The position numbers and the translations under genes were made by a program. The notes beneath the pieces are model-generated. The model ran no database searches. It saw only the letters and a list, made by a program, of their open reading frames with translations, and had not been told where the DNA came from. A stretch of 64,000 bases of DNA from an uncultured Gemmatimonadales bacterium (GTDB lineage: Bacteria; Gemmatimonadota; Gemmatimonadetes; Gemmatimonadales; GWC2-71-9), in assembly GCA_963695555.1 (NCBI GenBank), contig CAVOGR010000002.1, forward strand, positions 352,001 to 416,000, in the 5' to 3' direction. The first letter of the stretch is position 1; the number at the start of each line of letters is the position of its first letter. Positions 48,326-59,501 of this stretch are shown one piece after another.

Positions 48326-49222
48326 TCAGTCCGTCTCTGGCTCGGGGAGCCGGAGGATGCGGTAGTGACTGAGTTGCCGCACGGCCACTTTCTGGCCCAC
48401 GGCTGGGACCGAGAACAACAAGTCGAAGGTCTCCTTGCCCTCGCTCCTGAGGAAGCGGCCCCACAGGTCGACGTAGGTAGTAGTCGAGTCTAGCCCCCTG
48501 CCCGTCTCTTCGATAACCTCGCCCGTCCGGGTACTGCTTCCTTGCCGCTCGAGATGGGACTCGGTCTCGATGCGGAGGGTCGGCGGCTCGTCCGTACTGA
48601 GCGCGGATGCTCGGGAGTGGCTCTCAACCCGGTCCGATTGGGTGACCGAAAGCCCAGCGACGCTGATCTGTGCGGAATCGGTCCATTCCATGTCCGGCCG
48701 CACCCCGCCGAGGGGCTGGGCCGGGAAGAAGCGCCGGGCCAATTCGGCGCTCAACCGCTCGCCGAAGGCTGAGGGAGGACCTACCACAAGGCCCCCCAAC
48801 CCGCCGGTCGGTCCCATCTCTCCCGACCATTGGACCTGACGGAGGCTGTCTAACGCCGGCTGGTAGGTAGTGCCGGGCTCCTGTCTGATGGAATCAAGGC
48901 GGAGCTCCACCCGATAGGTGCTGTCTAGGGGCTCGAGGGCGACGGTGAGAAAGACGGTTCGGCCGTGGACCTCCGTTTGGGACCCGGTCGGCAGCCGGTA
49001 CTCGATGCTGTCGAGGCGATGGTAGCTGTATGAGCCCCCAGACGCTGGGTGGTAGCGGAAGTCGCGCTCGGCGGTGTCGGCCTGCTCCAGCTGGACTCCG
49101 GGGCGCGCAGGGACCGGTCGACGGACGATGTCTCTCGATCCTGTCGTGCAGGCAGCCGAGAGGAGCGCCAATGCCGCGACCGGCATGAGGCGTGAGGAGG
49201 GATACATGGAGGGGATGGCCAC
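48326..49222 (-). CDS. Hypothetical lipoprotein (beta-rich)
   Basis: Hydrophobic leader ending LLSAAC; no family recognised; start uncertain. Confidence 0.65.
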   Translation of the reverse strand: MAIPSMYPSSRLMPVAALALLSAACTTGSRDIVRRPVPARPGVQLEQADTAERDFRYHPASGGSYSYHRLDSIEYRLPTGSQTEVHGRTVFLTVALEPLDSTYRVELRLDSIRQEPGTTYQPALDSLRQVQWSGEMGPTGGLGGLVVGPPSAFGERLSAELARRFFPAQPLGGVRPDMEWTDSAQISVAGLSVTQSDRVESHSRASALSTDEPPTLRIETESHLERQGSSTRTGEVIEETGRGLDSTTTYVDLWGRFLRSEGKETFDLLFSVPAVGQKVAVRQLSHYRILRLPEPETD

Positions 49223-49561: not shown

Positions 49562-49596
49562 GCGTTCGCCCCGGAATGGTGCTCCGGGGCGAACGC
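49562..49596 (-). terminator. 14-bp perfect hairpin at the rnpB 3' end
   Basis: GCGTTCGCCCCGGA-N7-TCCGGGGCGAACGC; no classical U-tract. Confidence 0.6.
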
Positions 49597-49977
49597 GAGA
49601 GGTCGTGCCGTAAGCCGAGTTCTGTTCGTCCGCAAGCGGACGGATGGTCATCTATCTGGGATGGCCGTCACCGGCCACCTCGAGCGACCTACCCGCGGCT
49701 ACCCAGGAGACCTGGACGGTGTGGGTCACACCTTGCCGCTTACTTGGTCTTGCTCCGGCTGGGGGTTACCGTGCCACCGCTGTTACCAGCGGCGCGGTGG
49801 GCTCTTACCCCACCTTTTCACCCTTACCCCCTGAGGGGCGGTATCTTTTCTGTGGCCCTTACCGTCGCCTCTCGGCGCCCAGGCGTTACCTGGCAGCCTA
49901 CCCGATGGAGCTCGGACTTTCCTCGGCGCCCGCCTCGTGAGAGGACCAACGCCGCGACCATCACGCACGACCCTCGC
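49595..49977 (-). ncRNA. rnpB: RNase P RNA (bacterial type A)
   Basis: Minus strand GAGGAAAGTCCGAGCTCCA ... GGGTGAAAAGGTGGGGTAAGAGCCCACC ... AACAGAACTCGGCTTAC; P1 ends GCGAGGGTCGTGC / GCACGACCTCTCGC pair. Confidence 0.97.
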
Positions 49978-50042: not shown

Positions 50043-51776
50043 CTACGGCTGGGGATCCGGCTCCGTCTCGGTGGTGCCGAAGATGCGCTCGTATTCGAGT
50101 GGGTGTTCCTCTCGCAGCCGCTCGAGGCTGATCTTCCCGGTAAAGATGGACTTGTCGAGCGGGAAGACCTCCGGCCGAAGAATCACACCATACGAATGCC
50201 ACAAGACCACGACCAACACGGCGAAGGTGGCCTCCAGGCCATGCATCACCCGCGCGATGGCGAGCACGATGCCGGGCAAGAGCTGAGACGCACCATCGGG
50301 GAAAAGCAGCACGAACCCGGTGACGGTCATGAGCGTGCCGCCGAGGAAGAGCCCCCAATACTCGAACTTCTCGCGAAAATCGAACTTCCCGACCTTTGGG
50401 AGGGGCGCGTTTCGGAGATAATGTCGGAGGGTCTGCACCGCGTCCACGAAGTCCTTCTTCTCGGGGAACATGGCCGGCACATGCCCCTTGCGAAACGCCC
50501 CCACCACGGACCGCCCTACATGCAGCACCAGCAGTGTGACGAACAACACGCCGGCCGCGCGGTGAATCAGCCGGGTGGTTCCGATGCCTCCCCAGAGTTG
50601 GATGAACCAGTTTCCGAAGGACGACCCCGGGTAACTCTGCGGTAGCCCCGTGAGCACGAGGAGGGTGAAGGTCACCATCGACAACAGGTGCTCCAGCCGT
50701 TCGACGAGGCTGAACCTGGTCACCATGACCTTTGACGAGGCCTGGTGCATTTCGCGGCGAAGGAGCTTTACGAAGCCATGGCGGATATCGAAGATGACGT
50801 GCAGCAAGAGCCCGGTCAGAACCAGCGGAATGAACACGTAGTACATGACGCGCACGGCCCAGACCGCGACGTTATGTCGCGGTCCTACGGGCTCGTGGCC
50901 AAGCCACGCGCCTACGATGCGCTCATCGGCGCCCTTGTGGCAGTCGAGACAAATGGGCGCGAGCTGTCCGCGGTCCAGCCAGCCGACCTTGTGGGCGCCG
51001 TGGCAGTCGGAGCAGACCAGCACGTCGGGCTGGTTCTTGCCGGACGGATGCCGCCATTGGAACTGGAGCGTGGTGCCGTGAAAGTCGCGCGCATAGGTCT
51101 CGGCGGCGAGCCTCGGGAGGTCGTAGCGGCGGATCAGCAAGTCGCTCGTGTGACAGTCGACACACAGCGCCGTGACCGCGAGCCGGGCCTCGCCCGTGCC
51201 CTCAGCGGACGCGGGGTGCGGCGGATGGCAGGTCATACAGGTCGGCAGGTCGCTGTTCGGCGAGTCGAGGGCGATGGATGCCGCGTGCCCTCCTGCCTCG
51301 AAATCGGCAAGCTCCTGGGCGTGGCAGGATCCACACCGCCCGGCAAGCAGCCCGGGTGCCTGAGCCGGCGGCGGGTCGGTGTGGGCCGAATGACAATCCG
51401 TGCAGAGGGGCGCCCCCTCCGCGACGTCGCGATGGGAGAGGTGAACGTCCTCATGGCAGTCCGCGCAGATGGCTGAGCGCTTCCGGGCGGCGATGGCCGA
51501 GTCCTGCGGAAAATCCCGGTGCCGGTCCTCGTGGTGACAAGAGAGACACGGAATTGTCGGGCCGTGTCCCGAAAGGCGGAGTTGATCCACCTCATGGCAG
51601 TCGGCGCAGTACCGGTCCTCGGCCCGGGTATCCTGTCCGACGGCGTCGGGCGTGATGCACACCGCAAGAGCGAACAGGGCAAGGGCGACCACTCGCGTCG
51701 CCCCTGCCCATCCGGCCTTCACGCTGATCGGATGCTCTGGGTGGGCGAGGTTGCGCTCAACGCGTTGGGCCATCAC
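50043..51776 (-). CDS. Nonaheme cytochrome c fused to FdnI-type cytochrome b (CbcL-like inner-membrane quinol oxidoreductase)
   Basis: Nine CxxCH (CADCH, CLSCH, CADCH, CTDCH, CGSCH, CMTCH, CVDCH, CSDCH, CLDCH), then TM helices with RF...ERLEH, IHR, MHG.EA, WH heme-b ligand candidates. Confidence 0.88.
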   Translation of the reverse strand: MMAQRVERNLAHPEHPISVKAGWAGATRVVALALFALAVCITPDAVGQDTRAEDRYCADCHEVDQLRLSGHGPTIPCLSCHHEDRHRDFPQDSAIAARKRSAICADCHEDVHLSHRDVAEGAPLCTDCHSAHTDPPPAQAPGLLAGRCGSCHAQELADFEAGGHAASIALDSPNSDLPTCMTCHPPHPASAEGTGEARLAVTALCVDCHTSDLLIRRYDLPRLAAETYARDFHGTTLQFQWRHPSGKNQPDVLVCSDCHGAHKVGWLDRGQLAPICLDCHKGADERIVGAWLGHEPVGPRHNVAVWAVRVMYYVFIPLVLTGLLLHVIFDIRHGFVKLLRREMHQASSKVMVTRFSLVERLEHLLSMVTFTLLVLTGLPQSYPGSSFGNWFIQLWGGIGTTRLIHRAAGVLFVTLLVLHVGRSVVGAFRKGHVPAMFPEKKDFVDAVQTLRHYLRNAPLPKVGKFDFREKFEYWGLFLGGTLMTVTGFVLLFPDGASQLLPGIVLAIARVMHGLEATFAVLVVVLWHSYGVILRPEVFPLDKSIFTGKISLERLREEHPLEYERIFGTTETEPDPQP

Positions 51777-51797
51777 CCACCCCTATCGGCTCCCCCG

Positions 51798-52415
51798 TCA
51801 CGGTCTCGCCGGCCAGAGAACGCCCTTGACCTGCCGGGTCACCACCCACGCCAACGCCCCGAGCCCGAGAACCGGCAGGAACACGACGAATGCGAGGCCC
51901 AGGATCGGTGCCGCGACCAGAAGCCCGATGGTCTGGGCCGGGGTCCGTTCCTGTGAGGCTGCGTCGGTCCGCGCCGTGGGCCGGACGGCCGGAAGCGTCC
52001 GCGTGCGACGCTTGACGTCCAGGACCGGGAGGACCGGATGGAGTCGGCCGGGGTCCAGCGCGACGTCGATCGCATGCGCCAACACGTCGGGCGAAACGGG
52101 CTTCTCGAGGTAGTCGCTTGCCCCGAGCTCCCGGGCCCGCCGCTCCACCTGCGCGTCGCCATAGCCCGTGAACAGGATGAAACGAGTCGTGGGCTGGCGA
52201 TCGTGCAGCCACTTCAAGAGTTCCAGCCCGTCGGTCCCCGGCATCCGAAGGTCGGAGACCACGACGTCGACTGGCTGACGAGAGAGTTCCGCGATGGCGC
52301 TAGCCCCGTCGGGAGCGGTCGTCACCGTGAGACCGCGGTCCTGAAGGAATCGCTGCCAACTCACGCGGACGCCTTCCTCATCATCAACGAACATTACTCG
52401 ATTCTTGCGCGTCAT
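51798..52415 (-). CDS. Response-regulator receiver with C-terminal transmembrane hairpin
   Basis: FVDDE, VSDLRMP, FTGYG, YLEKP all intact; hydrophobic tail LLVAAPILGLAFVVFLPVLGLGALAW; no DNA-binding domain. Confidence 0.85.
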   Translation of the reverse strand: MTRKNRVMFVDDEEGVRVSWQRFLQDRGLTVTTAPDGASAIAELSRQPVDVVVSDLRMPGTDGLELLKWLHDRQPTTRFILFTGYGDAQVERRARELGASDYLEKPVSPDVLAHAIDVALDPGRLHPVLPVLDVKRRTRTLPAVRPTARTDAASQERTPAQTIGLLVAAPILGLAFVVFLPVLGLGALAWVVTRQVKGVLWPARP

Positions 52416-52449
52416 GGTTTACCACCTTCCGTTAGGCGGCGGCTCCGGG

Positions 52450-52845
52450 TCACGAGACCATCAAACACCGGCTCCGCCGTTCGTGCATCCGACCCACAAC
52501 GGAGGCCAGGGTGTCGAGGTCCTGTCCCTTCGGCTCCGTCCACATTAGATCCACTCCGCAGGCAGTCAAGTATTCGGCGACCAGGAGCGAAAGTGGCACT
52601 TCCGTGATCGCGACCATCTGCATGGCAGGGAATTCGAGAGCCATTCGGCCGATCACCCCGAGCAAGCTGCCCTTCGGTGGTTTCCGGAGGTGGAAGATGA
52701 GGACCGGGATCGACCCCAAGGGTTGTTCGCGAACCAAGTCTTCCAACCGGTGGTAACACCTGACCGGGCAACTGCGCCGGGCGAGTCCAGTGGCGATCGA
52801 GGCCCCGGCCTCGGAATCGGAGAGCATCACCGCTTGGGCTTTCAT
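52450..52845 (-). CDS. Hypothetical protein, possibly a degenerate receiver-like fold
   Basis: GAGG RBS; alternating beta/alpha pattern (PVLIFHL, FPAMQMVAIT, GVDLMW) without the acidic phospho-site residues. Confidence 0.6.
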   Translation of the reverse strand: MKAQAVMLSDSEAGASIATGLARRSCPVRCYHRLEDLVREQPLGSIPVLIFHLRKPPKGSLLGVIGRMALEFPAMQMVAITEVPLSLLVAEYLTACGVDLMWTEPKGQDLDTLASVVGRMHERRSRCLMVS

Positions 52846-52917
52846 CGTATCGCCTCGGCATCCTCCAGTACTCCCTGACATTCGAGCCCTCCGATTCGTC
52901 CCTGCGCCAACCCTTAA

Positions 52918-52964
52918 CTCAAGCTCTATGCCAGCCTGGGCTGAACCGACTAAAGCTTTTGATA
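52918..52964 (-). promoter_or_regulatory. sigma54 (-24/-12) promoter with adjacent IHF-like site
   Basis: Minus strand TGGCAT-AGAGC-TTGAG (52933-52918) against TGGCAC-N5-TTGCW; TATCAAAAGCTTT (52964-52952) against WATCAANNNNTTR. Confidence 0.65.
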
Positions 52965-53170
52965 ACAGCAAGATAGGGATCGTGAGCCAAGGTCGCAGAG
53001 CGCCGGATCGGGCGCGAGTGTCGTCGGTTGGTATACAAACCGACGTGGTGGTGTGACGGAACGTCCGCGCGGCGTGGCGGCACAACCTCAAGCCGGCCAG
53101 GGATTTATGGGAAAACGGCGGTCAAGGATGCCTGCCAGACCAGGTGTATACCGATCTGATACGGGTCGGA

Positions 53171-54648
53171 TCAGGCCGAAGAGAGGGGTGCGTGCCCGTT
53201 GTCGTCCTCGTCGTCCGAGCCGGCCCGGGCACGCATCGGCGGGGTGATGCCGTGCTTTCGCATCAGTGCGTGGAGGTTCGGCCGCTGCATGCCGACGGTG
53301 CGGGCCGCCTGCGACACGTTCCACTGGGCGGCCTTCAGGGCCTTGAGGACGAACAGCTTTTCGAGCCGCTCGACGGCTTCGGCCCGGAGCTCCCGCTTCT
53401 TGGCGGCGAGACCCTTGGCGTCGGTGGGAACCTCGTCCCATTCGGCGGTTGGGTGTTCCCCGACCACGGTGGGCAGGTCCTCGAGATCGATCAGGCGGGA
53501 GTCGGCCAAGAGGAACGCGCGTTCCAGCACGTTCTCGAGTTCCCGTACGTTGCCGGGCCAGTCATGGAGTTCGAGCGCCGACATCGCCCGCGGTGTGATT
53601 CCGTCGATCTCCTTCTCGAACTCTTCGGCGAACTGTTTGATGAAGTGGTGGGTGAGTAGTGGATCTCTTCCGTTCGCTCGCGAAGCGGAGGAAGAGGAAT
53701 GGTGAAGACACTCAGGCGATAGAACAGATCTTCCCGGAAGGAGCCTTCGTCCGCCATCTCCTTGAGATCGCGATTGGTCGCCGCGATCAACCGGACGTCG
53801 ACGGTGACGGTTTTGTCGGACCCAACCGGGCGAATTTCCCGTTCCTGGATCAACCGAAGGAGGCTGCCTTGGATTTGCGCCGAAATGGTGCTGATCTCGT
53901 CCAAGAAGAGGGTCCCGCCCCGCGCCGCCTCGACGAGGCCCTTGCGATCTTTCACGGCCCCGGTAAAGGCGCCGCGCACGTGGCCGAAGAGCTCAGATTC
54001 GAGCAAGGACTCGGCGAGCGCCGCACAATCCGCGACCACGAAGGGGGCATCGCGGCGGGGGCTGTTGTAATGGATCGCGCGGGCGATCAATTCCTTCCCG
54101 GTCCCGGTTTCGCCGGAGACGAGGACCGTGCTGTTGGTCGGTGCAACCTTGGCGACGAGCTGCATGACCTTTCGCATGGCGGGTGACGAACAAATGACGT
54201 TGCCGATGCGGTATCGCGACTCGAGTTCGGACCGCAGCCGCCGGGTCAAGCCCAACAAGTGTTTCCGCTCCAGCGCCCGTGCCACCGACACGACCAACTG
54301 GTCCGGGCTCACCGGTTTTTGGAGGTAGTCGGTGGCGCCGAGCTTGACGGCCTCGACCGCGGTCTCGATCGTGGCGTAGCCGGTCACCATGATCACCTCG
54401 GTTTCCGGGGACATGGACCGTGCCTGACGCAGGAAGTCGATACCGTCCATTTCGGGCATCTTGATGTCGAGCAGCAGAAGATCGAATACCTCCTTTTGCA
54501 GGAGATCGAGTCCTGCACGCGGCGACGTGGCCGTGGCGACGCTGTAGCCCTCCTCGGTCAGCACGCGGCGGATGCTCTCGCAGACGACCTCCTCGTCGTC
54601 CACGGTGAGCACGCGCGGGGGCTCGGTCCAGATGTGGTCTTCGGTCAT
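53171..54648 (-). CDS. sigma54-dependent NtrC-family response regulator; apparent frameshift near 53662
   Basis: Receiver (VDDE, LDIKMP), GETGTGKE, ESELFGHVRGAFTGA, FREDLFYRL; WPGNVRELEN and Fis-type HTH continue in a second frame. Confidence 0.92.
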
Positions 54649-56300
54649 GACGCCGCGATGCTTGCAGGTTGTACCGCCACGGGCAAGAGGACGGTAAACT
54701 CCGCCCCGGTCTTCCCGTCGCTGGTTGCGAGAATAGTACCACGGTGCCGGACGATGATTGCCTGGGAGACGGAGAGTCCGAGGCCGGACCCTTGCCCTAC
54801 CGGCTTCGTGGTGAAGAAGGGATCGAAAAGCTTCTTGAGGTCTTCTGGCGCGATTCCCGTGCCGGTGTCGCGCACCCGCACCCGAACCAACTCGTGTCCC
54901 GGGGCTGGGGGAAACTTGACCGTCGCATACGCGCTCCGGTTGACCACGTCCGCGGCAATGGTAATGCGTCCACCCTCGGGCATGGCTTGCACGGCGTTGA
55001 GGAGCAGATTCACCAAGACCTGGGTCAGTTGGACGGTGTTCGCCTCGACGTACGGGAGGTCGGCTTGGACGGAGAGGCCGGTCTCGATGCCACGACCTCG
55101 GATCTCGACCTTGAGAATTTCCAGCGCTCGGTCGATCAGCTTGGGAAGTGCACACAGCTCGATGACCGGTTCCTGCGATTGGTCCCGCGAGAAATCGAGC
55201 AGGGTCCGCACGATGGCCGCGCAGCGGTTTGCCTCGTGCAGGATCATCCGGATGTCGGCGTATTCCTGGGAATCGGGTGGCAGCCGCTTCTGGACCATGT
55301 GAGCGAAGGTCACGATCGCCATCAACGGGCTGTTGAGTTCGTGCGCGATTCCAGCGGCGACGAGACCGACCGAGGACAATTTCTCAGCCTGCACGACCTG
55401 AAACTGGGCCGTCCGCAACTCCTCCGCCTTTTGAGCCACCTTCGTCTCGAGCTCGTGCTGGGAGACGTTCAGGCTCTCGATCATTTCATTGAACGAGCGG
55501 GCAAGGAAGCCGATCTCGTCGGCCGCGCCGCGGGGGACTTGCAGCTTGTAGTCGCCTCCGGCGACCCGATGTGTGGCCGCGATGAGCCGCTTGACCGGCT
55601 GGCGAACATTGTGCCGAACCAGGAGGAACAGCGCGGTCGTGATGACAACAACGGCACCGAGCGAGACCAAGATGGCCTGTCGCGTCGAGGCATAGATCCG
55701 GGCCTGGGTGGGCTCGAGCGACATGGCGACGTCGAGCACGCCGAGGACGCTCTGGGACGTGGGCAACGCATGACAACCCGCCGGGTGGCACCCCTCCTCG
55801 TTCCGGATCACGGCAATGGTCGCCAGCATCTTTTCGCCCTCAGGTTCCGCATAAATGCGAGAGCGGTCTTTCAAATCGAGATTTCGGTAGGGTTCGGACT
55901 CCGTGTGGCACCTGATACAGGCCTCGGCCTGTTTGTCGACCACGCGGCCCACCTCCTCCGGCCGGGAGGAGTACGAGATCCGGCCCTCCTTGTTGAACAA
56001 CCGCACCCACCCGATGCCGGGGTTCTTGCCCACCGATTCGATGACTTCCGTCACCCCCTCGCGCTGGTTCCCAAGCATGTCGTGATTGATGCTGAGACGG
56101 ATCGTTTCCGCGATGCTCTCGGAGCTGTGGATGACCTCGGCGAGGACTTGCTTGCGCTGCGACTGGATGAGGATGAAGGACAGTGTCGCCACGCCGCCGA
56201 GCGTGAGAACACCGGCGAGCACCGCAATCCGGGAGCTGAGGGTCCGGGGTAGCACGCGGATGTAATCCGAGAGTGAGTGGGCAGCGCGCCGCAGGCCCAA
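54645..56300 (-). CDS. Sensor histidine kinase with heme-c-motif periplasmic domain and HAMP
   Basis: Two TMs flank CIRCH and CHPAGCH; DEIG.LA.SFN HAMP; AHELNSPL H-box; NAVQA, DTGTGI, FFTTK, GSGLGL; start uncertain. Confidence 0.92.
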   Translation of the reverse strand: MGLRRAAHSLSDYIRVLPRTLSSRIAVLAGVLTLGGVATLSFILIQSQRKQVLAEVIHSSESIAETIRLSINHDMLGNQREGVTEVIESVGKNPGIGWVRLFNKEGRISYSSRPEEVGRVVDKQAEACIRCHTESEPYRNLDLKDRSRIYAEPEGEKMLATIAVIRNEEGCHPAGCHALPTSQSVLGVLDVAMSLEPTQARIYASTRQAILVSLGAVVVITTALFLLVRHNVRQPVKRLIAATHRVAGGDYKLQVPRGAADEIGFLARSFNEMIESLNVSQHELETKVAQKAEELRTAQFQVVQAEKLSSVGLVAAGIAHELNSPLMAIVTFAHMVQKRLPPDSQEYADIRMILHEANRCAAIVRTLLDFSRDQSQEPVIELCALPKLIDRALEILKVEIRGRGIETGLSVQADLPYVEANTVQLTQVLVNLLLNAVQAMPEGGRITIAADVVNRSAYATVKFPPAPGHELVRVRVRDTGTGIAPEDLKKLFDPFFTTKPVGQGSGLGLSVSQAIIVRHRGTILATSDGKTGAEFTVLLPVAVQPASIAAS

Positions 56301-56372: not shown

Positions 56373-59300
56373 TCAGCCGGGGCGTCCCATCGCGGCGATC
56401 TGGGCCTCGATCTCGTCGACCAGCGGTTGGAGCGAGGGGTCCGGGGTTTTCCATTGGGCCAACGCCAGGCGGTATTGCTCCTCGGCTTCTGCCGTCCGGC
56501 CGAGCTCCTGGTAGGCCAGGCCGCGCATGACCCGAACCCGACCGATCATCCCCCACCGCGGATCGAACCGGTCGGTGTTGAACTGGGACGGCTCGAAGTT
56601 CCGTAGCAAGTCCAGCGTCGTCCCATACTCCCCCAACATGTAGCGCGCCTGCGCCGCCAGCGGCACTCGATAGTGCTCGGCGAGGTACATCTTCTCTTCT
56701 TTCGCCGTCGCCAGCGTCTCGCTGCCCCGCACCGGCTCGTTGAGCACCTCGCGGGCCCGGACGGTGTCCTTGCGGCTCAGGGCCAAGAGGGCGCGGACCT
56801 CCCGCGCCAGAGCGTGCTCGGTCAGCGCCTGGAATTCGACGAGCGCGGAGGAATCGGCGAACGTAGTGAGGAAGACGCCGAGAGCGGCGGAAGCACCCGA
56901 CATTGCCACCGCATGACGTACTTCCCCCGGGGCCAGGCGGGCCGTTTCCGCGACGGCGTCCCACACCCGCCGCTGCATCGCAACCGGGGCCTCGGTCGCC
57001 GCGTACAGATTGCCCAGCATATTTCGATTCCACCACTCGTCAAAGAACTCGGCGTTTGGCCCGCCCTCTTCGAAATCCAGGGCGCGGCGAACATCGTCCG
57101 CCAACTGAATCGCCTTCGCCGCAGTCGAGATGTCGCCCAGGTACGCGAAGACGTTTGAGCTGGCGGCCACCAGGTTCACCAGGTCGAAGTGCCGGTCCAG
57201 CACGCGGAAGTCGTCCGGGGCAATCGAGTCGAGCGCAGCACGCAACACCTCGGCGGCGCGGTCCGTATTTCCCGCCGCGAGATGCACTCGGGCTTCTCGG
57301 AAGGGAAGGTCTGGTCGCGCCCGCCCGGACTCGAGAGACTGGGCGATTTCGGTCAACGCCAGCGGGTACTCCCCGCTCAAGATGTAGGCATCGATCAAGG
57401 CGTTGTGGGCCCGATCGACGTCGGGCTGGCTTGCGACCCACGTGCGAGCCCGTTGAACGGCGTTGCCCCGGGCCCGCGCGATGGCCCGTGCGAGTTGGGT
57501 CGAGTCGAGCACCCTGCCTTGCGCGGCGTTGTGAGTCGGCGCCAAGGAGTCGCCCGGCATCAACGCGATCAGGCTGTTGGGACGGGCAGCATTGGCGAGC
57601 AACCACATAATGTGGTCGAACGCCAGTGCGTACCCCGGATCGAGCTCCAGCGACCGGGAAAAGGCCCTGAGAGACTTGGTCCAACCCGCCGGCCGGTCTT
57701 CGCCGGGTTGGTGGAACCAGGAATCGCCAAGTCCGTACCACGCATCGGCGTCCGCGGGATTCTGGGCCAGAAGTTCCTCATACAGTCGCCGGGCGCTTGC
57801 GTTGTCACCCTCGATGAACGCCCGGTAGGCTTGGATGACCTTGCGCTCGTGTGCCGGCAGATCGCTCGAATATCGGGTCGCGTGGACCATGGCCCGATTC
57901 GAAATCGAGTCATTGGTTCCGAGGCTCCAGCCACGGGCGAGCGCCAGCTTGTAATACGCCAGGCCAAAGGTGCTGTCGATCGTGACTGCCTGCGCCAGGT
58001 CGGCGATGGCTTCCGAGAGCTCCCACTTGTTGAGGTGGTGCACGCCATTCAAGTAGGCCCGGTACGCTGCCACGGATTCCGTCGTGGCCTTGGCCAAGTC
58101 GGCTTGGACGTCGGTCGGGGCGCCGCTCAGGTTCAAGAGCCGTGTCGCGAGTTGATCGAACGTGGAGCGAACGTCGTCGCCGATCGGCGCGGTCGACTGC
58201 ACCTGGTCTACTCGTGCGCCGGTGGCGACGTCGTAGACCCTGGCCGTGAGGCGTAGCGAGTCTTCGGCCTGCTCGAACTCCCCGGTGACAACGGTCCAGA
58301 CACCGGCGTCCCGCGCCAATCGGCGTGCCTCTTTCAGGCCGATGATCTGACCGGGCACGATCTCCTTGACGGCAAGGAGATCGTGAACCCGCTCCTGGTC
58401 CACCACGGACAAGTCATCCCACTGGGAGAGATTGAGCGCCAACATGCTCACGCTGCCGGAGTTGAGCCAGGCCAGATCCGGGTCGTCCCGAAGATTGTTG
58501 AACGGGAGCACCAAGATCGAGTGCCGTGGGTCGATACCCGCTGGCGGCCGCGGCTCACCCCTGCCAAGCAGCGCAACGGCCGTCGATACGGCAATCAGCG
58601 CCAGCGCCGCAACGGCGACTGCCCAGCGGCGGCCACGAGTGCGGGGCACCTTGGCCGCACCGAGAATGGCCTGACGCACCTCCTCGCCGGTCTGCCACCG
58701 GTCGTCCGGCTGTTTCTCCAGGAGTCGCATGATGATGCCGGCCAGCCTGGGCGGACAGTCGGGGCGGTGCCGCGAGACGGATTCCGGCTTGACGGACAAG
58801 TGGCGAGAGACCACCAAGCGATTGGGCCCCACGAACGGCGGGCTCCCGGTGATCATTTCGTAGCCGAGGATTCCCAAACCATACAAGTCGCTGCGGGAGT
58901 CGATGTCCTCTCCGGCGGCCTGCTCAGGGCTCATGTAGGTCGGCGTTCCGAGCACCATTCCTTCGCCGGTGATCTCGGTTGCTCCGTCTCCGGCGATGAA
59001 CCGTGCGATTCCAAAGTCCACCAGGAGTGCGCGGCCGCTCTCCTCCTCGATCAACACATTTTCGGGCTTGATGTCCCGATGCACCAAGCCGGCCTTCGCG
59101 GCAGCATCCAGGGCCGCCGCCAGGTCCAGGAGAATCCGTTCGGCCACGGCCGTCGGAAGCTGCTTGTCCCGGCCCAAGCGTTCCCGGAGGCTCTCCCCCT
59201 TCACGTAATCCATGACGTAATACACGAGGCCGTCGATTTGGCCGGCGGAATGCACGGACACGATGTTCGGGTGTCTGAGCCGCGCGATCATGCGAGCTTC

Positions 59301-59501
59301 CGCCAGGAAGCGCTGTGTCAATGTCGGATGGTTCGCGAGCTTCGGCTGAACCACCTTGATCGCCACCCGACGATCGAGCGTGGGGTCAGAGGCCAAGAAC
59401 ACCACCCCCATCCCACCCCGGCCGAGTTCTTCCTCGAGCACGTACTGGCCGCCGAGGACGGCCTGGATCTGCTCACGGAGAGCCGATGGAGAGGGCCTCA
59501 C
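56373..59501 (-). CDS. Membrane Ser/Thr protein kinase with TolB_N-like and TPR extracytoplasmic region
   Basis: LGRGGMG, VAIK, HRDIKPEN, DFG, GTPTYMSPEQ; TM; SILVLPFNN; multiple TPR-like repeats. Confidence 0.92.
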   Translation of the reverse strand: MRPSPSALREQIQAVLGGQYVLEEELGRGGMGVVFLASDPTLDRRVAIKVVQPKLANHPTLTQRFLAEARMIARLRHPNIVSVHSAGQIDGLVYYVMDYVKGESLRERLGRDKQLPTAVAERILLDLAAALDAAAKAGLVHRDIKPENVLIEEESGRALLVDFGIARFIAGDGATEITGEGMVLGTPTYMSPEQAAGEDIDSRSDLYGLGILGYEMITGSPPFVGPNRLVVSRHLSVKPESVSRHRPDCPPRLAGIIMRLLEKQPDDRWQTGEEVRQAILGAAKVPRTRGRRWAVAVAALALIAVSTAVALLGRGEPRPPAGIDPRHSILVLPFNNLRDDPDLAWLNSGSVSMLALNLSQWDDLSVVDQERVHDLLAVKEIVPGQIIGLKEARRLARDAGVWTVVTGEFEQAEDSLRLTARVYDVATGARVDQVQSTAPIGDDVRSTFDQLATRLLNLSGAPTDVQADLAKATTESVAAYRAYLNGVHHLNKWELSEAIADLAQAVTIDSTFGLAYYKLALARGWSLGTNDSISNRAMVHATRYSSDLPAHERKVIQAYRAFIEGDNASARRLYEELLAQNPADADAWYGLGDSWFHQPGEDRPAGWTKSLRAFSRSLELDPGYALAFDHIMWLLANAARPNSLIALMPGDSLAPTHNAAQGRVLDSTQLARAIARARGNAVQRARTWVASQPDVDRAHNALIDAYILSGEYPLALTEIAQSLESGRARPDLPFREARVHLAAGNTDRAAEVLRAALDSIAPDDFRVLDRHFDLVNLVAASSNVFAYLGDISTAAKAIQLADDVRRALDFEEGGPNAEFFDEWWNRNMLGNLYAATEAPVAMQRRVWDAVAETARLAPGEVRHAVAMSGASAALGVFLTTFADSSALVEFQALTEHALAREVRALLALSRKDTVRAREVLNEPVRGSETLATAKEEKMYLAEHYRVPLAAQARYMLGEYGTTLDLLRNFEPSQFNTDRFDPRWGMIGRVRVMRGLAYQELGRTAEAEEQYRLALAQWKTPDPSLQPLVDEIEAQIAAMGRPG

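Follow-up and report, generated by a model that had tools for sequence, protein, structure and literature searches.

A conserved five-gene sigma-54 module with a predicted two-haem sensor kinase and a fused multihaem c/b cytochrome in Gemmatimonadales

What is the function of a compact cluster in which a haem-motif sensor kinase, a sigma-54 activator, two receiver-type proteins and a multihaem cytochrome are encoded side by side, and is its cytochrome the counterpart of Geobacter CbcL? The question was raised by a 64,000-nucleotide stretch of DNA (the window, G000:C2:352001-416000) from the genome of an uncultured Gemmatimonadales bacterium (G000; 3.57 Mb, 87% complete), the nearest named relatives of which are Gemmatimonadales bins. 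All five genes are on the minus strand, in the order kinase, NtrC-type sigma-54 activator, pseudo-receiver, membrane-anchored receiver and a fusion of a 9-haem cytochrome c to a cytochrome b. A first-pass annotation of this DNA had listed five co-oriented genes here, and the domains it named were found. It had also called them a self-contained sigma-54 module, and the co-occurrence of the genes elsewhere, the presence of rpoN and a conserved promoter with upstream sites support a conserved, self-contained module of this kind. The reading that we prefer, and to which we give about an even chance, is that the unit adds an inducible branch to the respiratory chain: a periplasmic sensor with two predicted haems would act through the sigma-54 activator on a fused c/b cytochrome that would oxidise quinol and pass the electrons to periplasmic carriers.

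The five genes stand in this order on a single contig in the source genome, in two genomes of the same genus (G002 and G004) and in two of the same class (G319 and G297, family f7; 44–82% identity); the arrangement recurs within the genus and also in two genera that belong to another order. It is interrupted only at contig ends or N gaps in two further genomes: in G001 the unit is split over two contigs, and in G277 the first four genes end at an N gap and the cytochrome begins after another. Four metagenome contigs hold consistent parts of the unit. Among 401 genomes of the phylum, close cytochromes (E below 1e-130) were found in six and the pseudo-receiver in five, all of them among those six; in the sixth (G003) the cytochrome starts at a contig edge, and neither the kinase sensor nor the pseudo-receiver was found. 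The unit is therefore rare, patchy and tightly linked. It lies close to dnaA-dnaN, bounded by a Ser/Thr kinase gene (56373-59501) and the RNase P RNA (49595-49974), and within these bounds it encodes neither a catalytic subunit nor a porin, as had been noted before. In G024, from another genus of the same family, the RNase P RNA stands directly next to the end of the Ser/Thr kinase gene, which represents an empty site; such a site was visible in one of the ten loci examined from other genera. A literature search, with subscription papers mostly outside its coverage, returned no description of the five-gene unit. A lipoprotein-like gene without a Pfam match (window 48326-49222) lies between dnaN and the RNase P RNA and is present in 32 of 41 genomes of the family.

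The region between the activator and pseudo-receiver genes contains the putative control elements of the last three genes. A sigma-54 -24/-12 element at 52919..52933 (minus strand), which reads TGGCATAGAGCTTGA, has equivalents at this position in nine of nine loci examined, with GC at -12 in four of them and GA in five, including the window. The sigma-54/IHF-like promoter reported earlier is thus retained in its -24/-12 part, with GA rather than GC at -12, while the IHF-like site (52952..52964, minus strand), one mismatch from the consensus, is weakly conserved. Upstream, two candidate activator-binding sites of the type TGTAT-N9-ATACA were identified on the minus strand, a distal one at 53145..53163 (one mismatch), centred 222 bp upstream of the -24 GG, and a proximal one at 53019..53037 (two mismatches), centred 96 bp upstream. 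The centre of the distal site lies at -219 to -222 in seven loci and that of the proximal site at -107 in five other loci and at -96 in three, the shift between the two being one helical turn. Exact matches to the motif numbered 1, 0, 1, 2 and 1 in five whole genomes and all five were at the module promoter; three of these genomes had supplied the motif, whereas G277 and L207, which were outside its derivation, carry both sites.

The source genome contains rpoN, which settles one point left by the first-pass annotation, and 12 GAFTGA-type activators. A weight-matrix scan of this genome gave 138 matches scoring at least 9.5, in which the top score and the only pair with both members at 16 or above were at the module promoter, its sites being part of the training set. 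A candidate for a wider regulon at C2:96846 was dropped as it lies inside a coding sequence. The same scan found no activator site scoring 12 or above at a multihaem cluster on contig C1, described below, and the predicted regulon of the activator therefore appears to be the single three-gene operon. A terminator scan gave three sites against 4.5 expected. An estuary metatranscriptome holds 76% of the sequence words of the region, and the depth of its contig is flat (about 10) across genes and intergenic DNA, which fits DNA carry-over and says nothing for or against expression.

The NtrC-type activator (53171..54648, minus strand) has a receiver domain, an AAA+ domain with GAFTGA at 53956-53973 and a Fis-type helix-turn-helix (HTH), and its gene overlaps the stop of the kinase gene. 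These are the parts expected of the GAFTGA activator described at first; what had been missed is that its frame is broken, one base being absent at 53660 in this assembly. If this frameshift were real, it would remove the DNA-binding domain and leave the unit permanently off in this strain, and decay of the module has a possible parallel in another Gemmatimonadota genome: in L025:9705-11347, titled Longimicrobiales, the kinase N-terminus runs out of frame into the middle of the cytochrome, with a few bases shared at the junction, either as a deletion remnant of a whole module or by misassembly. However, the missing base sits in a short run of identical letters, the frame is intact in five of five aligned relatives (L021, L022, L146, L142 and L143), and the other genes of the unit change mostly synonymously. 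The extra base is present in contigs of five of eight public runs, and none is listed without it; these contigs represent related strains and not necessarily the source sample. Because many similar breaks occur among the C1 cytochrome genes of the same assembly, the frameshift is likely an assembly error, and we regard a permanently silent unit as very improbable. A different change, in the cytochrome leader at window 51715-51723, is an in-frame deletion that lies between short repeats and removes 14 codons which relatives have and contigs of three public runs also carry.

The sensor histidine kinase (54645..56255, minus strand; start codon uncertain, with the frame open to 56300) has two transmembrane segments, HAMP, HisKA and HATPase domains and a periplasmic single-Cache domain. 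Haem-c motifs had been noticed in its periplasmic part and two are present on the minus strand, a CxxCH (CIRCH, 55905-55919) and a second that is CX4CH (CHPAGCH, 55770-55790) and not CxxCH. The model of the periplasmic domain (pLDDT 89) is a single Cache fold, and it matched the sensor of WalK (Z 14.1, rmsd 2.2, 130 aligned), CitA (Z 11.6) and Tll0287 (Z 8.7). The single sequence gave no useful match in a PDB search, whereas a profile of 59 sequences found two Geobacter haem-c sensors, 3B42 at E 4.7e-6 and 3B47 at E 8e-4; in the alignments the CX4CH lies over their CxxCH and the region of a conserved Met over their N-terminal helix. Among clusters at 50% identity, 1,199 are related to the domain at E 0.001 or better; in the 150 best of these, both motifs occur in 134 and the Met in 149. 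The Cache domain is thus predicted to contain two haem sites. A second kinase with a sensor of the two-haem-motif type (33% identity), followed by an NtrC-type regulator, is encoded in the same genome at C7:777251-782933 (L303, L105), together with an archaemetzincin-like gene and a divergent GcvH-like membrane protein, both labelled by eye.

With the sCache_heme or Tll0287-like sensors and the Geobacter proteins GSU0582 and GSU0935 (PDB 3B47 and 3B42), the kinase shares a periplasmic single-Cache fold between two membrane helices, a haem motif ahead of the last strand and an N-terminal-helix Met that aligns with the region where the Geobacter proteins have their Met60 ligand. It differs from them in that the known haem site is occupied by CX4CH, the canonical CxxCH being an extra one earlier in the domain, in having no PF11845 match, and in its output through a histidine kinase and a sigma-54 activator. 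The sCache_heme domain has been defined with one canonical motif, and neither a second haem nor CX4CH is mentioned in the main text of that 2026 preprint (PMC12889525). A Cache kinase with CxxCH and CX4CH was not found described in the literature searched, where the supplementary sequence sets of the preprint, searched by taxon name only, could include the family unremarked. The putative two-haem-motif Cache kinase, related to the Geobacter haem-c chemoreceptors, thus appears as a new type found in no paper searched.

The signal read by this kinase could be redox potential or nitric oxide (NO). In GSU0582 and GSU0935, Met60 ligates the haem in its reduced state and gives way to NO or CO, both of which these proteins bind, and their potentials are -156 and -251 mV (PMC8396549). 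A HAMP-linked sCache_heme member binds NO tightly and behaves as an NO sensor (PMC12889525). If NO were the signal, the cytochrome might feed NO or nitrite reduction or protection, and the source genome has HAO-like octahaem genes, two near-copies of which lie at C1:724708-729926 (L301), one of them frameshift-broken in the assembly, as well as a haem-copper oxidase-like cluster on C2. Against this, none of the loci examined has a nitrogen-oxide enzyme linked to the module, NosZ, NrfA and the octahaem cytochrome are each absent from most of the five genomes tested, and the motif match near the oxidase cluster is inside a coding sequence. We therefore hold a unit that serves NO or nitrite turnover in this way to be decidedly unlikely; redox potential is the preferred signal, with NO a live alternative.

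The cytochrome (50043..51776, minus strand) begins with a signal-like segment, has nine CxxCH motifs between residues 57 and 280 with twelve further histidines for distal ligation, and matches PF01292 above the cut-off, with five membrane helices and no C-terminal sixth. Its His363, His405, His512 and His527 align with His18, His57, His155 and His169 of FdnI, which are all four haem-b histidines. Most homologues are longer, and 15 haems are present in 79 of the 120 best. In common with Geobacter CbcL (GSU0274), the protein has an N-terminal nine-CxxCH domain fused to an FdnI/HydC-like dihaem cytochrome b, and this architecture is what stands of the CbcL-like label given to it earlier; orthology does not. 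The spacing of its motifs (20, 27, 21, 23, 32, 25, 50, 21) differs from that of GSU0274 (23, 25, 23, 24, 29, 28, 43, 28), and it has five helices where CbcL has six. A sixth C-terminal helix is present in a paralogue encoded on C1 and in four of five CbcL-fingerprint proteins, the frame of the fifth ending early, whereas no hydrophobic tail follows the b core in the cytochrome, nor in any of the 91 homologues, among the best 120, in which the tail end could be placed.

Sequence comparisons were made with proxies of CbcL, that is, proteins with the haem spacing of GSU0274 (four exact, one differing by one residue), and not with GSU0274 itself; the haem positions of GSU0274 came from a published table, the search covered 301 genomes from the phylum to which a Desulfobacterales-titled locus belongs, and the proxies were drawn from the 30 loci returned. 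Against these proxies, the identity of the cytochrome was 27–32% in the b domain and 25–26% over the full length, whereas the C1 paralogue reached 51–52% in the b domain. In trees of 121 and 47 rows, taken from 230 b domains and thinned at 78% identity or by hand, the module cytochromes formed their own clade (97; 98/100) and the C1 paralogue grouped with the proxies (100; 100/100). The root is unsure because the branches of the E. coli outgroups are long. The CbcL/MtrH/MtoC family, which already lists one Gemmatimonadetes member, has been described with 3–23 CxxCH, 4–6 membrane helices, conserved haem-b histidines and pairwise identities of 28.6–100%, with 57.6% or more in the CbcL clade (PMC6295460). 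The cytochrome fits this broad description in its nine motifs, five helices and conserved histidines, with the identities to the proxies set against that range. In addition, CbcL is described as constitutive and BccR-independent (PMC6295460, PMC13591261), whereas the cytochrome of the unit lies behind a sigma-54 promoter. On these comparisons, it has the architecture of CbcL without being CbcL.

The cytochrome is also distinct from the b subunits of formate dehydrogenase and hydrogenase, as it scores 59 against a cut-off of 115.85 bits for TIGR01583 and 21.5 against 121.5 for TIGR02125, and no catalytic subunit was found in the module-bearing loci examined. With E. coli FdnI and HyaC, the b subunits of formate dehydrogenase-N and hydrogenase-1, it shares a four-helix core and four haem-b histidines (1kqf_C, E 6e-7) at about 22% identity; it differs in an extra helix, the multihaem domain and a locus without a catalytic or Fe-S subunit. 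The same regulation could in principle serve the reverse direction, an inducible quinone reductase of FdnI/HydC or MtoC type which would draw electrons from donors in the periplasm or outside the cell and feed them to the quinone pool by way of a redox loop. Its b domain belongs to the FdnI/HydC family and keeps an FdnI-like GKFDFREK stretch where the CbcL-fingerprint proteins differ, and the family occurs in Fe(II) oxidisers and Fe(III) reducers alike with no distinguishing feature (PMC6295460). Yet no periplasmic dehydrogenase accompanies the module, and searches of five genomes gave no formate dehydrogenase-N above the cut-off. The nearest rows outside the module clade are split c and b genes of Acidobacteriota and Chloroflexota, which have NarL-type two-component pairs, lone receivers or FAD_binding_2 flavoproteins as neighbours; the flavoproteins adjoin the Chloroflexota-titled loci and, by analogy with flavocytochrome reductases, would suit quinol oxidation. 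Electron flow into the quinone pool is thus considered unlikely, and quinol oxidation remains the preferred direction. At L030, L037 and L038, split relatives of the cytochrome lie among FAD_binding_2 flavoproteins with twin-arginine-like leaders, a setting which suggests that in those hosts the relatives act as quinol dehydrogenases that supply periplasmic reductases. At L142:919-5812 (G319), a second kinase and sigma-54 pair, accompanied by an 11-haem cytochrome c and by a cytochrome b of the CbcL clade, is convergent with the module, so that two regulated c/b systems adjoin.

The outlet for the electrons was sought in the rest of the genome. The source organism had been said not to look like a classical metal reducer, and this is not supported in view of its C1 contig, which at 566000-590400 (L300 in part) contains at least eight multihaem genes, a gene of the CbcL clade, a cytochrome b6-like gene and a gene for an unassigned, barrel-like protein of 494 residues, with a Rieske-like gene beside a hydrogenase. 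Cytochrome c assembly genes are present in the genome as well. The nearest named Atlas clusters of the 494-residue protein are outer-membrane barrels (scores 0.92–0.93, family shares 10–59%). The barrel-like gene occurs in eight of eight module-bearing genomes, which represent about three genera and not eight independent draws; across the phylum it is found in 181 of 401 genomes, and within family f7 in 12 of 70. This co-occurrence lends weak support to a link between the unit and extracellular transfer, in which a role of the unit is plausible. NosZ, NrfA, the HAO-like octahaem cytochrome and formate dehydrogenase-N were each tried in five genomes as a shared acceptor or partner and are not common to the module-bearing genomes.

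Two of the three genes behind the promoter encode receiver-type proteins. The pseudo-receiver (52450..52845, minus strand) has no match in Pfam or NCBIfam; a fold search with its AlphaFold model (pLDDT 87) returned receiver domains (Z 14.7, rmsd 2.3, 115 aligned), in line with the receiver-like label it was first given. The conserved Lys is gone, the phospho-acceptor Asp is gone in this genus with His at that position here, and its changes are mostly synonymous. A profile comparison with the anchored receiver was not significant (probability 0.8%), so that the receiver identity was settled by the fold search. The membrane-anchored receiver (51798..52415, minus strand) was recognised as such by PF00072 and a hydrophobic segment at residues 165-183; besides the receiver domain it has a variable linker and a conserved C-terminal membrane hairpin, PxxGLxFVxFLP. 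Asp10, Asp11, Asp55, Thr83 and Lys105 are kept in 21 of 21 aligned orthologues, and a metagenome scan gave four true orthologues among 80 loci, the remainder being generic receivers.

The same hairpin was found in small proteins beside split c and b cytochrome genes at four loci, and three copies, two in L041 and one in L028, were outside the training set. With these proteins at the loci of relatives, the hairpin is a recurring partner of this cytochrome subfamily. A new observation is a conserved membrane hairpin that, as judged by gene neighbourhood, accompanies the subfamily in three phyla. The stand-alone hairpin proteins (L026:14141-14428, L028:6784-7119, L029:4642-4956, L041:8534-9457 and L054:11524-11805) have 95-125 residues and no Pfam match in the three scanned; they adjoin the split cytochrome genes and NarL-type pairs and apparently form an unnamed family of small membrane proteins. 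The Rrf1 receiver of the Desulfovibrio hmc operon may offer a precedent and is taken as a lead only.

Because two of the three induced genes are of receiver type, the unit might be mainly a signalling loop, in which the cytochrome would serve as a redox antenna, bringing the quinone pool into equilibrium with the haems of the kinase, and the two receiver proteins would be the true outputs. The extra haem motif of the kinase could take electrons in such a loop, the nearest Acidobacteriota and Chloroflexota relatives sit with two-component pairs, lone receivers and the hairpin protein and not with conduits, and no acceptor is common to the module genomes. However, nine to fifteen haems are a large investment for the relay of a signal, and a Geobacter operon of similar content, cbcBA, has a response regulator too and carries bulk current (bioRxiv 10.1101/2021.04.15.440034). 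We thus find a purely signalling function improbable and return to the respiratory branch.

The BccR-cbcBA system of Geobacter sulfurreducens, likened here by layout and description, is the closest working analogue of such a branch. There, an operon that encodes a response regulator together with c and b cytochromes is switched on by the sigma-54 activator BccR at falling potential, near -0.21 V (Joshi et al., bioRxiv 10.1101/2021.04.15.440034), and the product is an inducible quinone-cytochrome c oxidoreductase. Both systems have a receiver-AAA-HTH sigma-54 activator, a -24/-12 promoter, a receiver gene, and a multihaem c and a dihaem b cytochrome. In the present unit c and b are fused with nine haems, whereas CbcA (seven haems, C-terminal anchor) and CbcB are separate; the genes are co-oriented, whereas the bccR activator is divergent; and a cognate kinase with haem motifs belongs to the unit, whereas the words kinase and sensor are absent from the main text of the BccR preprint.

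In the mechanism that we propose for the respiratory branch, the Cache domain would bind two c haems, of which the CX4CH haem and the conserved Met may switch ligation with the redox state as in GSU0582 and GSU0935, and the extra CxxCH haem may be the point of electron entry. Because the activator gene overlaps the kinase stop, we infer that the kinase would phosphorylate the activator. The activator would then bind the two TGTAT-N9-ATACA sites, which are defined by conservation, and open the -24/-12 promoter of the three-gene operon. The cytochrome would move electrons between menaquinol, at its two b haems, and its 9–15 c haems, and from there to shared periplasmic cytochromes; the C1 multihaem and barrel cluster would be the most likely outlet, though it has a CbcL-like gene of its own. 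Speculatively, the anchored receiver and the pseudo-receiver may provide feedback, for example as a phosphate sink or as a regulator docked on the cytochrome.

Several observations weigh against this reading. The -12 element of the window is GA, and within the window alone the activator motif is not above chance (3 matches against 3.3 expected), so that the evidence for the sites is comparative; the C1 cluster, as the candidate outlet, has no strong site. The barrel gene is common anyway in the phylum and is found in 117 of 166 genomes of the home family, and a search for terminal reductases found none common to the module genomes, NosZ and NrfA each being present in two of five and neither in the source genome. 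Signalling-type sCache_heme domains are reported as NO-sensor-like (PMC12889525). A tree that forced the module cytochromes together with the proxies was rejected (p-AU 4.8e-5), and as the cytochrome is not a CbcL orthologue, the direction and potential window of CbcL, and its low-potential role in extracellular electron transfer below about -0.1 V, are not directly transferable to it. Finally, its b domain has an FdnI-like motif beside the quinone-side haem, with Asp and mostly Glu at the positions of FdnI Asn110 and Gln113, which fits quinone reduction equally; the putative roles of residues at the FdnI/HydC quinone site serve here as a lead only.

A wider proposal, which we put forward tentatively and consider doubtful, is that the kinase founds an undescribed, widespread family of two-haem Cache sensors (the 1,199 clusters) that would read periplasmic redox potential by electron uptake at one haem and a ligation switch at the other, and that, by closing the loop with a quinone-linked multihaem cytochrome and a hairpin-anchored receiver, would form a Gemmatimonadota potential-sensing switch for extracellular respiration. 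If this is true, the family would name a kind of sensor that is absent from the Geobacter BccR story. For metagenomes, the locus illustrates that a CbcL-like annotation can denote a distant paralogue and is not proof of metal reduction. Electroactive bacteria switch their inner-membrane cytochromes with redox potential, and the upstream sensor is poorly known, the BccR preprint having an activator and no kinase. Here a candidate haem sensor, the activator, its predicted sites and the target cytochrome all lie within about 6 kb, so that the chain could be rebuilt in a laboratory host, and the unit may serve as a testable model for redox sensing that reroutes respiration.

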